Origin: Candidatus Babelota bacterium
GTDB taxonomy: Bacteria > Babelota > Babeliae > Babelales > CAIQNR01
Length of the DNA: 64,000 nt
NCBI GenBank assembly: GCA_965658655.1
Contig: CBFHTA010000001.1
Location: forward strand, 360,722 to 424,721
Direction: 5' to 3'
A program made the translations under genes and the position numbers. Positions 45,353 to 52,828 of the stretch are shown one piece after another. The notes beneath the pieces are model-generated. The model did no database searches. It was given only the letters and a program-made list of their open reading frames with translations, and was not told the origin of the DNA. Positions within the stretch are counted from its first letter, which is position 1, and each line of letters opens with the position of its first letter.

Positions 45353-46123
45353 ATGAGCAAAGTTTTATTAGATATCAAAGATGTTACAAAACGTTATCAA
45401 AGTAAGGGGCTGTGCGTTGATGCTTTAAAAGGCGTCAATCTTCAAATTATGGAAGGAGAAATATTTAGTTTATTGGGTATAAATGGTGCCGGCAAAACTA
45501 CACTTTCTGGCATTATTGCAACGTTGCATCCAGCAACTTCAGGTGATATTGTGCAGAATGGTAGATCAATTTATGATGATGTTGTTGAGTATAGGCGTAC
45601 TATTGGTCTTTGTCCTCAATCTCCTAATATTGATATGAGTTTAACGATTGAAGAGAATCTTCGTTATGCAGGTCGATATTACGGTATGGACAATGTAAAG
45701 ATAGAAGAGCGTATTGCCTATTTAATGAAACGTTTTGGTTTAGAAAAATACGCAAAGTCTTTGGGGTACGTATTGTCTGGTGGTTATAAACAACGATTCA
45801 TGATTGCTCGTTCGTTGATGCATGAGCCAAAGTTGGTAATTCTGGATGAGCCGACTGTTGGTTTAGATCCACATGTTCGTCGTGACATTTGGGAGGTTAT
45901 TAAAGACTTGAAGAAAGAGAACGTAACGGTTCTTCTTACAACTCATTATCTTGATGAAGCGGATAAACTTTCTGATAGAGTATGTTTGCTTGAAAAAGGG
46001 GTAATTCAATTGATTGATACACCGGATAATCTTAAATCTCTTCATGGTCAAGCAAACCTTGAAGATGTGTTTGTAAAGCTCATTAAAGAGGGTGAAAAAG
46101 CACAAGAAGAAGTAAATAACTAG
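45353..46123 (+). CDS. ABC exporter ATP-binding protein (DrrA/NodI type)
   Basis: GINGAGKT, LSGG, LDEPTVGLD and TTHYLDEA. Confidence 0.93.
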   Translation: MSKVLLDIKDVTKRYQSKGLCVDALKGVNLQIMEGEIFSLLGINGAGKTTLSGIIATLHPATSGDIVQNGRSIYDDVVEYRRTIGLCPQSPNIDMSLTIEENLRYAGRYYGMDNVKIEERIAYLMKRFGLEKYAKSLGYVLSGGYKQRFMIARSLMHEPKLVILDEPTVGLDPHVRRDIWEVIKDLKKENVTVLLTTHYLDEADKLSDRVCLLEKGVIQLIDTPDNLKSLHGQANLEDVFVKLIKEGEKAQEEVNN

Positions 46124-46141: not shown

Positions 46142-46921
46142 ATGCTTTTAAGTATAAATACTTGTTTAAATTTGGTCAGGAGAGACATGCATGTTTTTTG
46201 GCCGACGTTTTTAGATCGATTTATTAACGGTACTATTTGGGTCGTTTTGACGGTTGTTATTTTTCAGTACGTTTTTCCACAAATGGGAATGTCTGAGGAT
46301 TATGCTGTTTTTATGGCTTGCGCTAATACTATGAGTTGGGGATTTTTTGAAGTAATGGGAAACGTTGCCACATTGGTGGGGGATTTGACTGGTCCTAAAT
46401 CAATTGAGTACGATTTGACTCTTCCATTGCCTCAATGGATGGTTTTTGTACGTATGGCAATTTCCAATGCACTTCAGGCAATGGTTATAGCGTTATTTAT
46501 TTTACCTATTTCAAAGATTGTACTGTGGAAGCAGTTTAGCCTTGCTCATTTTTCTTTTATGAAATTTACAGGTATTTTTATAGTAGGAAATTTGTTTTAT
46601 GGTTTCTTTTCATTGTGGCTTGCGAGTATGACAAAGAATTTGGAGCATATTAATAATGTTTGGATGCGGGTGGTTTTTCCGTTATGGTGGATCGGTGGTT
46701 ATCAATTCAGCTGGGGAACCATGTATAAAATGTCACCAGTAATGGCAAAGGTAACTCTTTTAAATCCACTAGTGTATGCTTTTGAAGGGGTTCGAGGATC
46801 TGTTTTAGGGCAATCTGATTATATTAGTTTTGGGTATTGTGTAGCAGCCTTAATTTTTGGATCTATTATTACAGGCTATATTGGAACCAAAAAAATGATG
46901 CAACGTTTAGATTGTTTATAG
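46142..46921 (+). CDS. ABC-2 type permease
   Basis: Six TM segments and NPLVYAFEGVRG. Confidence 0.85.
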   Translation: MLLSINTCLNLVRRDMHVFWPTFLDRFINGTIWVVLTVVIFQYVFPQMGMSEDYAVFMACANTMSWGFFEVMGNVATLVGDLTGPKSIEYDLTLPLPQWMVFVRMAISNALQAMVIALFILPISKIVLWKQFSLAHFSFMKFTGIFIVGNLFYGFFSLWLASMTKNLEHINNVWMRVVFPLWWIGGYQFSWGTMYKMSPVMAKVTLLNPLVYAFEGVRGSVLGQSDYISFGYCVAALIFGSIITGYIGTKKMMQRLDCL

Positions 46922-46933
46922 GGTGATTTAGAG

Positions 46934-47719
46934 ATGAATGTAAAAAAGGTATTGATAACGTTTTTTTACTTGATGGCAAGGGATCTGCGAGTTTATTTAC
47001 CAGATCTTAAAAGAGACGTTATCAATGCTTCCATATTTATTTTTTTAACAAGTTTTACCTATCAATATATAATGCCTTTGGAAGGGATAGACGGACAGTA
47101 CGGTCTTATTACAGCATGCGGTGGAATTGTTGCGTGGGGAATGTTTGCGGCTCGAAACAAAGTTAGTTTCTTGGTAAGAGACATAACAGGATTTGGAACG
47201 TTAGATTTTTTTCTTACGTTGCCTTTACCACAATGGGCTGTTTTTGTTGCTCTTGCTTTAGCTACTGCAGTAAGGCCAATGCTCATTATAGCTTGTGTTT
47301 TTCCTGTTATTAAAGTGCTCTTTTGGAATACACTCATTCTTTCTCAGATCGCATGGGGTAAATTTTTAACCATTTTTATATTAATAAATATATTTTATGG
47401 TTTTGCCACTCTTTGGCTGACTGCGTCTTCTGACAAAGTAAGTTCCATTCAGAATATTTGGATGCGCATTATATTTCCACTCTGGTGGGTTGGTGGTTAC
47501 GGTTTTATTTGGAGAACATTTTATAAAGTTTCTCCAAATGGTGCTTATCTTTCACTCGTTAATCCCCTTGTTTATGGATACGAAGGCGTTCGAGGTGCCG
47601 TTTTGGGACAAGCTGGTTATATTAATTTTTGGTATTGTGCAGGTGCATTAATTTTTACTTGTATTATTACTGGTTATATAGGGGTCAAAAAAATGATGGC
47701 TCGCTTGGATTGTTTTTAA
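46934..47719 (+). CDS. ABC-2 type permease (paralog)
   Basis: Shares LTLPLPQW, WMR..FPLWW.GGY and NPLVY..EGVRG with the upstream gene. Confidence 0.85.
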   Translation: MNVKKVLITFFYLMARDLRVYLPDLKRDVINASIFIFLTSFTYQYIMPLEGIDGQYGLITACGGIVAWGMFAARNKVSFLVRDITGFGTLDFFLTLPLPQWAVFVALALATAVRPMLIIACVFPVIKVLFWNTLILSQIAWGKFLTIFILINIFYGFATLWLTASSDKVSSIQNIWMRIIFPLWWVGGYGFIWRTFYKVSPNGAYLSLVNPLVYGYEGVRGAVLGQAGYINFWYCAGALIFTCIITGYIGVKKMMARLDCF

Positions 47720-47745
47720 TATTTTATTTAATAAAGGGTATATGT

Positions 47746-48399
47746 ATGAAAAAAACTATGATTCTCATAGCAGCTATCTGTTTAGGAATTGCATGGTTTT
47801 GTTATAGACCTGTGATAAAGGCAGGGACTGTGATAATTTTAAATGGTCCTTCTGCTTCTGGTAAAAGTTCTATTCAAGCAAAATTTCAAGATAGTATGAT
47901 GCCAAAACTTTGGATTAAAGTTGGTATTGATAATCTTTTTGATAAGCCAATGCCCGATATTACACAAGAAAATATGGCATTTTGGCAAAAGGAAAATGCT
48001 ATTCGATGGGTAGAGGCGAGTACCAATGAGGGAAACCCAGTTATTACTTTATTTACCGGTAGTCAAGGAGAACAAGTTGCTTATGGCATGAACAGTGCCA
48101 TCGCTGCCTATGCTCTAGCAGGAAATAATGTGATTGTTGATTACATTGCTTATAAAAAAGAATGGGTTGATGATTTAAGAAATAAACTTTCATCAATACA
48201 TACCTATTGGATTAAGGTAAATATTCCATTATCAACCATAGAAGAAAGAGAAGTTGCTCGAAATACTTCTCCTAAGGGGCATGCTCGTAGCCATTACGGT
48301 TCTGTTCATTGGGATATACAGTATGATTTTGAAGTTGATTCATCTCAAGATTCTGCTGAAGAAATAGCACATAAAATTAAAACATTTATTTCAAAATAA
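47746..48399 (+). CDS. Chloramphenicol phosphotransferase-like P-loop kinase with N-terminal anchor
   Basis: IILNGPSASGKSS, GID, GNNVIVD, EERE.AR and YDFEVDS; start reassigned to 47746. Confidence 0.8.
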   Translation: MKKTMILIAAICLGIAWFCYRPVIKAGTVIILNGPSASGKSSIQAKFQDSMMPKLWIKVGIDNLFDKPMPDITQENMAFWQKENAIRWVEASTNEGNPVITLFTGSQGEQVAYGMNSAIAAYALAGNNVIVDYIAYKKEWVDDLRNKLSSIHTYWIKVNIPLSTIEEREVARNTSPKGHARSHYGSVHWDIQYDFEVDSSQDSAEEIAHKIKTFISK

Positions 48400-48407
48400 T
48401 TTTAAGC

Positions 48408-48443
48408 AAAAAAAGAGCCCCGAGAATTCGGGGCTTAATTTTT
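48408..48443. terminator. Bidirectional intrinsic terminator
   Basis: A7-gagccccga-gaat-tcggggctt-aatttttt between convergent genes. Confidence 0.75.
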
Positions 48444-48834
48444 ATAAAACTTCTTGGGCTTTTTTGTGTTTTTTCTTTTGATTTCTATTGTGAATGATCT
48501 TGCCGATAGATGAGATTACTAGTGCCGGAAAGATATTGTAAGCAAATGAGTTTGCCAGCTCGATAGGCGCATTAGTTACACGACGAGATAATGTTCTAGG
48601 AATAGCCTCTATTTTTTGACCTATCATATTAAGAGGTCCTATCTTGCCTCTATAAAATATAATCATCTTAGGGTTTAACGGCCACAAAAAATTATCTGTG
48701 ATTGATATGACTGCCATAGTAGCGTAAGTTTTTTTAAAACTTGCATACCATGGAGTTTCTTCTTTTTTTGCTTTTTCACAGCTTATATTTGCAATAGATA
48801 GGCTCAATAGAACTACTATCATTATTTTTTTCAT
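48442..48834 (-). CDS. Hypothetical exported/lipoprotein, tandem copy A
   Basis: MKKIMIVVLLSLSIANISC leader; paralog adjacent. Confidence 0.7.
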   Translation of the reverse strand: MKKIMIVVLLSLSIANISCEKAKKEETPWYASFKKTYATMAVISITDNFLWPLNPKMIIFYRGKIGPLNMIGQKIEAIPRTLSRRVTNAPIELANSFAYNIFPALVISSIGKIIHNRNQKKKHKKAQEVL

Positions 48835-49367
48835 AAAATTCCTGATAATGGAAGTGATCGTAAATGTTTATCTATAGAGGGTATCAAAGCATAAGGGGCA
48901 AGTCAAAAGCCTTTGGAAGCTTAAAGTGTTTTTTCTTTTGATTTCTATTGTGGATTTCTTTAAAAATACTTACAAAGAAAACAGTTTGTACTAAATTAAA
49001 AAATAGAGTTTGTACTAGATAGTCAGCATCTATGTATTTAAAATAGTCAGGGAAACGTTGCATGAATTCCTTAGAGAAAGAATCAGTAGAATACATTACT
49101 GCATCTTTTGAAGCAGATATCGTTGTACTACTTCCTATATGTATAAGGTCTTTTACGCATAAGGCTAAAAAGAATTTTTTATGGCTTGTATACCACTGAG
49201 TTTCTTCTTTTTTTGCTTTTTCACAGCTTATATTTGCAATAGATAGGCTCAATAGAGCTACTATCATTATTTTTTTCATAAAATTCCTGATATTGGAAGT
49301 GATCGTAAATGTTTATCTATAAAGGATATCAAGGCAGTAGGGGAAGTCAAAAAACTTTAGAAGCTTA
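48466..49367. repeat. Tandem duplication (~450-bp unit) with conserved ends
   Basis: 48466-48492 is identical to 48926-48952; 48740-48923 closely matches 49185-49367. Confidence 0.9.
48884..49279 (-). CDS. Hypothetical exported/lipoprotein, tandem copy B
   Basis: MKKIMIVALLSLSIANISC leader and shared IHNRNQKKKH near the end. Confidence 0.7.
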   Translation of the reverse strand: MKKIMIVALLSLSIANISCEKAKKEETQWYTSHKKFFLALCVKDLIHIGSSTTISASKDAVMYSTDSFSKEFMQRFPDYFKYIDADYLVQTLFFNLVQTVFFVSIFKEIHNRNQKKKHFKLPKAFDLPLML

Positions 49368-49488
49368 TGAAGTCTTAATTGATTTATGCCATTATTTTAG
49401 TATTGAGGCTTTAAAGTGTACATAGTGGTTAGATACGCACTTTCATGTTACACTCGTCCAACAAATCAAGTTTGTAATAGGTAATGTT

Positions 49489-52159: not shown

Positions 52160-52828
52160 ATGAAGGTAAAAAGTAATGCTACTTTCTTTTCGCTCGTAGA
52201 ACACGAAATGGTATGTCATTTTCCGTATGCTGTTTTATCAGTAGCACTGAGTATGATTGCGGCTGGAATTTTGGGATATTTTTCATTTGGAGCAACACCG
52301 TCTACGGTTGAGCATGGGTCTATGGTACTTTTTCATAGTTGCCACTTTTTACACATTGTTTTTGCAGCTACTGGTGCTGTGCTCACATTTTTTAGATATT
52401 CTAAAGATGTGTTGAAGGGTCTTATTGTTGGAGCTCTCTCGGCTATTGTTTTTTGTATGTTGTCAGATGTTCTATTGCCATATGTGGTAGGTGAACTGAT
52501 GGGAATAAATATGCAACTCCATATTTGCTTCTTCTCTGAGTTTAGCAATGTTGCGCCATTCTTGGTGGTAGGGGTATTTAACGGTTGGTTGTTGAGTAAA
52601 CATCATGGTGGACAACAAAGTTTCTTCTCTATTTGGTCTCACTTTGCACATATCTTTGTAAGTTCGTTAGCTTCTATGTTATATACTATTTCTCATGGCA
52701 TGCATGATTGGTATCAATATATGGGAGTATTATTTATGCTATTAATTATTGCGGTGGTTATACCATGTACGTTGTCTGATGTAGTTGTTCCGGCTTACTT
52801 TGCAGGTATGGGTAAAAAACAAAAATGA
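52160..52828 (+). CDS. His-rich polytopic membrane protein
   Basis: About six TM segments with HFPY, HFLH, HICF and HFAH; ATGA overlap with potA. Confidence 0.65.
   Translation: MKVKSNATFFSLVEHEMVCHFPYAVLSVALSMIAAGILGYFSFGATPSTVEHGSMVLFHSCHFLHIVFAATGAVLTFFRYSKDVLKGLIVGALSAIVFCMLSDVLLPYVVGELMGINMQLHICFFSEFSNVAPFLVVGVFNGWLLSKHHGGQQSFFSIWSHFAHIFVSSLASMLYTISHGMHDWYQYMGVLFMLLIIAVVIPCTLSDVVVPAYFAGMGKKQK

Follow-up and report, generated by a model that had tools for sequence, protein, structure and literature searches.

Conserved ends and non-aligning middles in a tandem pair of putative exported-protein genes of a Babelota bacterium

Introduction

In Helicobacter pylori, paralogous outer membrane proteins (babA/babB) are conserved at the 5' and 3' ends and divergent in between, the ends being homogenised by gene conversion; they are large beta-barrels encoded at separate loci, and in-host switching is documented. 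The msp2/p44 genes of Anaplasma carry a hypervariable middle between conserved flanks that guide recombination, with many truncated donors and one expression site. Here, a pair of small genes with near-identical ends and unrelated middles is described from a window of 64,000 nucleotides (nt) in the genome of a Candidatus Babelota bacterium (assembly GCA_965658655.1, contig CBFHTA010000001.1, positions 360,722 to 424,721; coordinates below are those of the window). The two genes, termed A and B, are arranged head to tail on the minus strand, with A the first in the direction of transcription. Unlike babA/babB, they encode small proteins predicted to be helical, are arranged in tandem and give no evidence of switching. 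Donor copies as in msp2/p44 were looked for in this genome and are not present.

Two other described systems share further traits with the pair. According to Tsuru and Kobayashi (2008, PMC2568036), each tandem copy of the lpl genes of Staphylococcus aureus contains a highly conserved DNA segment that is a site of homologous recombination, phylogenies of different parts of one open reading frame (ORF) disagree, and the evolutionary unit runs from the 3' part of one gene through the spacer into the 5' part of its neighbour. The pair resembles lpl in the tandem arrangement of paralogous genes, the exported, lipoprotein-like products and the conserved segment as a recombination site. In contrast to the present pair, where the ends are conserved and the middle varies, the conserved segment of lpl is central with varying ends, and lpl is known in many copies from many sequenced strains, whereas here two copies are present and relatives are known from protein sequence. 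No sequence relation of either protein to lpl was found in Pfam and NCBIfam scans. In the erp genes (ospE/ospF/elp) of Borrelia burgdorferi, two reports (PMC10016077, PMC12242104) describe a conserved promoter, leader peptide and first mature residues that precede bodies of independent descent, reshuffled by recombination. The same order of conserved promoter DNA, leader and first mature residues before unrelated bodies is seen in the pair. The erp genes are located on cp32 prophage plasmids in many allelic copies and encode proven surface lipoproteins that have no conserved C-terminal anchor, while the pair is chromosomal, consists of two copies and has a conserved C-terminal anchor block and a putative lipobox. 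For homology to Erp, OspE, OspF or Elp, no Pfam match was obtained with A or B at E<=1.

Results

Structure of the gene pair

The pair is a mosaic, the parts of which are listed below. Near-identical 5' and 3' blocks enclose middles without recognisable similarity; the middles represent two subtypes, the ends are conserved throughout the family and are more alike within this genome than between organisms, and two copies only are present. Since the gene segments have different nearest relatives, ends and middles have had different histories, and recombination at the conserved ends is indicated.

48884-49279, minus strand: gene A (P0001, A-type), ORF of 131 amino acids (aa) with the orthologues P0002 (69% identity) and P0005; its parts are a putative signal peptide with Cys19, a helical A-type middle, a hydrophobic anchor, HNRNQKKKH and a derived 14-residue tail
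48442-48834, minus strand: gene B (P0003, B-type), ORF of 130 aa with the native tail KKAQEVL; relatives P0004, P0006 and P0007
49175-49367, minus strand: 5' constant block before and in gene A, with promoter-like site, ribosome-binding site, signal peptide and codons 1 to about 35
49350-49323, minus strand: promoter-like site of the gene A copy (TTGACT, 16-nt spacer, TATCCT)
48730-48925, minus strand: 5' constant block before and in gene B, the upstream part of which (48884-48925) is also the last 14 codons of gene A
48926-48955, minus strand: 3' constant block of gene A, with an exact 27-mer at 48926-48952 encoding HNRNQKKKH
48466-48495, minus strand: 3' constant block of gene B, with the exact 27-mer at 48466-48492
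48956-49174, minus strand: A-type core, 219 nt, 29% G+C
48496-48729, minus strand: B-type core, 234 nt, 38% G+C
48415-48436: two-way terminator-like hairpin, 3' of gene B and of a convergent CPT-like gene

The 5' blocks form a direct repeat of 184 nt (48730-48913 and 49175-49358; 89% identity, ungapped), which spans upstream DNA and the first 35 codons and was recovered by BLAST inside the genome at 91% identity (E 1.8e-70). In a gapped alignment of the upstream part, 80 of 90 columns are identical in the A and B copies. Identity is highest around the start codon, where 118 of 120 nt agree (-40 to +79 relative to the ATG), the first 27 codons being free of synonymous differences and the 43 nt 5' of the ATG containing a single difference. 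Past +79 it drops to 8/10, 6/10 and 6/10 in the next 10-nt steps and reaches chance level after about +110. The identity of the block is thus stepwise, with 98% in the centre, approximately 74% at -93 to -56 and approximately 65% at +83 to +105. The 3' blocks (30 nt each) differ by a single mismatch, and the 27-mer within them was found twice in the window, compared to zero occurrences expected from 100 shuffles, even with up to three mismatches.

Between these blocks, the genes do not align. Local alignment of the core DNA gave scores of 19 (forward) and 22 (reverse), which is chance level (shuffles: mean 18.4, standard deviation 2.6), and a comparison of the A-type and B-type core profiles with hhalign returned a probability of 0.1%. 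A relation of the cores by frame shift or inversion was rejected, as neither core, read in any frame on either strand, yields a translation similar to the other protein. The lengths of the cores depend on where the edges are set: an earlier reading of the window from its letters, here called the first-pass annotation, had used slightly different edges and obtained 232 nt (A) and 247 nt (B).

The last 14 codons of gene A (48884-48925; FKLPKAFDLPLML and the stop codon) are a copy of the upstream block, namely the one preceding gene B, and the 3' coding end of gene A overlaps the promoter-like region of gene B. At this junction, the 3' homology between A and B ends at the downstream edge of the gene A block, and homology to the upstream block of gene A begins 2-3 nt further on. 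Gene A has the sequence NRNQKKKH in its block, as found in B types, while the other two A types have NRNKKKQ and have kept a tail of their own (KKAEEVF or KTLGVL); for this reason, the 3' block of gene A looks as if copied from a B-type gene, and its tail is derived. Upstream of the block, in the part encoding the anchor helix of gene A, an internal direct repeat of 23 nt was observed (48974-48996 and 48998-49020; 83% identical, 24-nt spacing). It encodes LVQTLFF-N-LVQTVFF; in the orthologues, this part is equally long and the repeat is weaker.

The descriptive part of the first-pass annotation is confirmed by these data. It had reported a tandem pair with near-identical ends and unrelated cores, about 90 bp of shared upstream DNA, cores giving no alignable protein and a C-terminus that reads through the duplication junction, the latter being that of the gene transcribed first (A in the present naming). 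An alignment of the cores by profile methods, which it had named as a finding that would speak against it, was not obtained.

Within the shared block, both copies carry a promoter-like site and an AGGA ribosome-binding site. No terminator-like site was detected between genes A and B, and as the only terminator-like hairpin is located 3' of gene B, transcripts of gene A probably run on into gene B. RNA folding of the shared leader gave no signal of structure (z-scores 0.01 and -0.67), and Rfam returned sub-threshold matches only, which lie on the terminator hairpin.

The protein family

The whole family consists of seven proteins, corresponding to 7 matches among 2571 candidates when a seven-sequence alignment was searched against 5.8 billion clusters; among 1.84 billion representatives, 5 matches were obtained at E<=0.001. 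Besides the products of genes A and B, these are P0002 (125 aa), P0004 (90 aa, 53% identical to the gene B protein, N-terminus missing) and three further relatives from large protein collections (P0005, P0006 and P0007). The size range of the family is given as 115-131 aa. The five relatives are encoded on five separate contigs of 19389 nt (P0002), 261080 nt (P0004), 2268 nt (P0005), 922 nt (P0006) and 10534 nt (P0007).

Two core types can be distinguished, A (P0001, P0002 and P0005) and B (P0003, P0004, P0006 and P0007). Identical residues in the core number 23-44 of 68-69 between A types and 13-29 of 56-69 between B types, but only 3-10 of 58-69 between A and B. The nearest relative of the gene A core is P0002 (44/68) and that of the gene B core is P0004 (29/69), while the two cores of this genome share 5 of 68 residues. 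The ends show the opposite pattern. In the N-terminal 35 residues, 19-26 are identical between organisms (6-14 of 14 in the C-terminal block), whereas P0001 and P0003 agree in 31 of 35, more than any cross-organism pair, and a run of EKAKKEE was found in these two proteins only. In this protein-level test for concerted evolution, the ends are therefore closer within the genome and the cores closer to orthologues. The better match of the A and B ends to each other than to those of orthologues indicates recombination within this genome.

Because each core type exists in other organisms, both middles are stable lineages and not the product of a recent event in this genome. A sharp change from alike to unalike sequence is also found between orthologues, for example between P0003 and P0007, and the middles diverge fast across species while the ends are conserved. 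The sharp edges between A and B are thus interpreted as largely edges of constraint, set by an export signal with an invariant cysteine on one side and by a membrane anchor with a basic tail on the other.

Relatives in other genomes were searched for at several levels. The gene A protein had no relative in 40 other genomes, and P0004 had none in 15 genomes of the same family. A search with the family profile in 260 other genomes of the same order yielded no member; ten of these genomes had matches at E<=0.01 per genome and 16-20 bits, several with in-frame stops, which were read as chance matches. At the DNA level, 145 stretches of genome contigs and 589 of metagenome contigs matched in a search for related loci, none of which was confirmed. 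A degenerate pattern of the N-terminal DNA identified 20 and 16 loci, and none of these 36 is a family member (best hmmsearch E-value 0.012). Judged from these searches, the proteins appear to form a very rare, lineage-restricted and newly defined orphan family.

Predicted protein features

The six members with an N-terminus start with MKK and a hydrophobic run of 12 residues, which is lacking in P0004, and all seven have a second hydrophobic run of approximately 15-20 residues directly before a basic tail. Cys19 is invariant in the six N-termini and is preceded by S at position -1, I or V at -2 and N or S at -3. The lipobox at the end of the signal peptide of bacterial lipoproteins has the consensus [LVI][ASTVI][GAS]C. 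The enzymes Lgt (PF01790, 144.4 bits) and LspA (PF01252, 98.1 bits) are both encoded in the genome with scores above the curated cut-off. A crude census, with 31 candidates from 1062 ORFs, recovered NISC in this pair alone, LPGC (three times), LSGC and FSGC occurring elsewhere. Cleavage by signal peptidase I after SIA, before N, is an alternative to lipidation. A and B are accordingly described here as predicted Sec-exported proteins and possibly lipoproteins.

Each protein can be divided into four putative parts, namely a signal peptide with the cysteine, a short conserved segment (TPWY.S.KK), a middle of approximately 65-70 residues, and an anchor helix with the basic tail IHNRNQKKK. They are probably small single-pass envelope proteins with an exported, perhaps lipid-anchored N-terminus. 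The fast-evolving middle, probably helical, would be located outside the cytoplasm and be followed by the C-terminal anchor with its basic tail in the cytoplasm. No Pfam family was above the cut-off for A or B at E<=1, only sub-threshold N-terminal matches were obtained with NCBIfam, and nothing was above the threshold in PHROGs and PDB sequences. The best scores in the ESM Atlas (0.78 and 0.76) were under the useful range.

Copy number, switching machinery and assembly support

The pair is chromosomal and is part of a genome of 0.93 Mb (4 contigs, 95% complete, 37% G+C). Genome-wide, the 184-nt block has two significant matches, the next best being 24 nt long (E 0.003), the 27-mer occurs twice with up to three mismatches allowed, and the family profile gives two matches among 14 candidates. 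The first-pass annotation had suggested a BLAST with the constant blocks to reveal further copies with different cores; only these two were found in the genome. Both are full length, and no silent, truncated or partial donor copies with constant flanks were detected.

Nineteen proteins in and around the pair were scanned with Pfam (the pair, its two immediate neighbours and 15 further ORFs of at least 100 aa between 39115 and 59290). The neighbours identified in this way are transporters, tRNA ligases, BamA and a CPT-like kinase; domains of recombinases, invertases, reverse transcriptases or toxins were not found among the 19. Hence, neither the adjacent recombinase or invertase of a shufflon or inversion system nor the reverse transcriptase of a diversity-generating retroelement is present in the scanned neighbours. 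PADLOC returned nothing above the threshold and two sub-threshold single-member matches only. Toxin or immunity domains were found in neither A nor B with Pfam, NCBIfam, PADLOC, PHROGs or PDB sequences, and the layout of polymorphic toxin and immunity proteins, with a constant N-terminus and a variable C-terminal tip, differs from that of the pair, with its two constant ends and a protein length of only about 130 aa. Conserved flanks around a non-alignable segment, as expected of a programmed cassette, are present, while the donor copies of such a system are not.

Unitigs of two metagenome runs span the critical joints of the pair without differences. In run X2, record 12 (48674-48924) contains the end of the B core, the start of gene B, the junction and the 3' end of gene A; in run X1, record 5 (48818-49227) contains the start of gene B, the junction and the whole A core. 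As these unitigs bridge the junction, a chimeric join is unlikely, the support being not independent in so far as the two runs come from the same study and the assembly may have been made from them. The contigs of X1 and X2 have no alternative letters at the pair, with the limit that contigs drop rare variants.

A third run, X3, contains a relative with approximately 88% DNA identity, the pieces of which cover gene B as well as the end of the CPT-like gene but no part of gene A. One low-depth contig of this run that matches 49394-49479 continues with 232 unlike letters at the place of the upstream block of gene A and was not used as evidence. In the X3 relative, the 33 nt between the end of the CPT-like gene and the shared terminator (48369-48403) are replaced by 65 other letters, as seen in one contig with a depth of 3.2.

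Genomic neighbourhood

The pair is flanked by the convergent CPT-like kinase gene and the divergent bamA (862 aa, with Omp85 and POTRA domains). The CPT-like gene (47629-48399, plus strand; PF07931, E 1.5e-32) encodes a P-loop kinase, the N-terminus of which (MKKTMILIAAICLGIAWFC) is signal-peptide-like or a membrane anchor. Its true start is likely an ATG near 47746; with the TTG that is listed as its start, it would overlap with the preceding permease gene. This permease gene (46934-47719) is adjacent to a paralogue (46142-46921), both being of the ABC-2 type and following an ABC ATPase gene (45353-46123). The trio is kept in the same-genus genome G001 (BamA 68% identical), where the CPT-like gene is absent from the same slot.

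In G001, an unrelated exported protein of 249 aa is encoded in the slot that follows the ABC-2 permease genes and precedes bamA, so that this genome is of no use as an outgroup for the pair. Exported proteins of approximately 245 aa with C-terminal halves that are alike (E 1.8e-13) are encoded upstream of bamA in G001 (L088, 4050-4799) and G006 (L084, 333-1067), other exported proteins of approximately 270 aa in G003 and G002, and none in G004 (loci L085, L086 and L087). The four slot proteins (G001, G006, G003 and G002) had no tblastn match in the genome of the window. As the slot in these five relatives holds other genes or none, the position of the pair beside bamA is probably incidental. 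Directly downstream of bamA, an ORF of 222 aa without a Pfam match is located (52160-52828, plus strand); relatives have a similar-sized ORF 3' of bamA as well, with a His-rich and then hydrophobic N-terminus.

Discussion

The account favoured here, at a confidence somewhat better than even, is that of an old pair of A and B subtype genes, the ends of which were homogenised by non-programmed gene conversion, together with one deletion or duplication junction. Both gene conversion as the process and the direction of conversion are what we infer from the pattern of identities. According to this account, the ends would be kept alike in all members by their roles in export and anchoring, while the middles, probably exposed and hence fast-evolving, would have diverged beyond recognition between the subtypes. 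With the subtypes placed head to tail, homologous recombination could have made their ends near-identical in DNA, by one recent conversion tract from approximately -40 to +80 and by a short tract over the HNRNQKKKH block, probably from B to A. Such tracts could not have entered the unalignable middles. A single junction, the end-point of a deletion or a duplication, would have removed the own tail of gene A together with the spacer and put the promoter region of gene B in the 3' end of gene A. In the 5' block, identity decreases in steps from 98% to approximately 74% and 65%, which fits repeated tracts of different ages and favours an old pair with conversion.

Several observations weigh against this account. 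The end of the 3' homology and the start of the 5' homology coincide within 2-3 nt, which is the classic outcome of a simple tandem duplication, and an extra deletion is needed to explain it otherwise. The non-coding upstream DNA is approximately 74-89% identical with the middles at chance level, which requires repeated conversion or another origin of the middles, and a conversion tract of 27-30 nt is very short. A tandem A-B pair was seen nowhere else, none of the relatives' contigs holding a second family member, and their apparent single-copy state, either A or B, fits differential loss and the import of a core equally well. With regard to the proteins, the lipobox (NISC) has an atypical N at position -3, and the AlphaFold2 models, although all-helical, are of low confidence (predicted local distance difference test 60.2 for A and 49.8 for B) and too poor for a fold search.

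The geometry of the junction, exactly that of a tandem duplication, favours a different history, in which a single ancestral gene was recently duplicated from about -93 to the HNRNQKKKH codons and one middle was then replaced by the other subtype from a related strain. Core exchange between constant flanks would in that case be a rare evolutionary event, not a programmed one. The near-identical flanks around middles that are each closest to the protein of another organism, the different G+C contents of the cores (29% and 38%) and the five relatives without a second member (three on contigs of at least 10 kb), as if A and B were alternative forms of one locus, are all in line with it. A recent duplication should have left a uniform identity, however, and the outer upstream part (-93 to -56) is approximately 74% identical as compared to 98% at -40 to +79; moreover, only about 30 nt of 3' homology are available for the second crossover, and protein ends that differ by approximately 25-45% between organisms are a poor substrate for recombination between strains. 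Duplication with core import is therefore regarded as a serious but clearly less probable alternative to the old pair with conversion. Less probable again is a population-level swap, in which the constant ends serve as recombination handles and each strain has, at one locus, an exposed middle drawn from several unrelated ones, similar to idiomorphs. Middles would then be exchanged or stacked via the promoter and signal-peptide block and the 27-nt anchor block, and the tandem would represent one such strain after its capture of a second type. If it existed, such a system would amount to surface-protein shuffling of the erp and lpl kind in a minimal, chromosomal form with two handles, in the reduced genome of a marine bacterium.

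Both leading histories, the old pair with conversion and the duplication with core import, are unprogrammed, given that donor cassettes were not found, that recombinase, reverse transcriptase and toxin domains were absent from the 19 scanned proteins and that PADLOC gave no match above the threshold. The first-pass annotation had proposed core exchange by recombination between constant flanks, as in antigenic-variation, effector or immunity cassettes. Recombination at the flanks is retained from this proposal, on account of the N-terminal identities (31/35 against 19-26/35) and of cores that are nearest to those of other organisms; the programmed cassette is not. An expression site with exchangeable cassettes, or a polymorphic effector and immunity module with a frequently swapped core, would explain constant flanks around unalignable middles in products predicted to be exported and probably exposed, but is highly improbable with two complete copies only, each with a promoter-like site and a ribosome-binding site, and with core types that other organisms have maintained at 42-69% identity, an unexpected finding for hypervariable cassettes. 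The contigs of X1 and X2, which drop rare variants, likewise contain no alternative letters. A recent duplication followed, without recombination, by extreme diversifying selection (likewise raised before) or by relaxed drift, acting on the middle alone, draws on the fact that middles outpace ends in orthologues too (P0003 and P0006: 13/66 in the core, 26/35 at the N-terminus). It is nevertheless considered very unlikely: the middles have closer relatives in other organisms, which places the split of the A and B cores before the near-identity of the flanks, and the DNA of the middles is at chance level next to non-coding DNA with 89% identity. In addition, the gene B sequences of this genome and the X3 relative differ in 12 codons, 7 non-synonymously and 5 synonymously, in a partial sample of 14 of the 36 differences in two pieces; this ratio is one of relaxed constraint and not a signature of positive selection. 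A collapsed or chimeric join of the alleles of two strains into a false tandem, which had also been named as an alternative, could be suspected in a genome assembled from a metagenome with unitigs that break within the shared block, yet it has hardly any probability left considering that the X1 and X2 unitigs, possibly the source of the assembly itself, span the junction with no differences and that the positions at which the two block copies differ are fixed.

In its process, the pair would match the segmental concerted evolution of tandem exported-protein paralogues, which is already known, while the family is new. Distinctive features are the very small proteins, the two handles (the 5' block and the anchor block of about 30 nt), the overlap of a promoter-like region with a coding end and the orphan family of seven members with its unusual build. 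No new mechanism is opened by the pair. The first-pass annotation had started from the premise that unequal constraint cannot give sharp boundaries, and this premise fails, as the same boundaries are found between orthologues of different organisms. Sharp constant and variable edges in tandem genes of exported proteins should therefore be read with caution, as they usually reflect constraint and gene conversion, not cassette switching. For the host, an uncultured bacterium with a reduced genome of 0.93 Mb, the pair would be a clean and very small case of segmental concerted evolution, in which export and anchoring modules are homogenised and the probably exposed middle changes freely.

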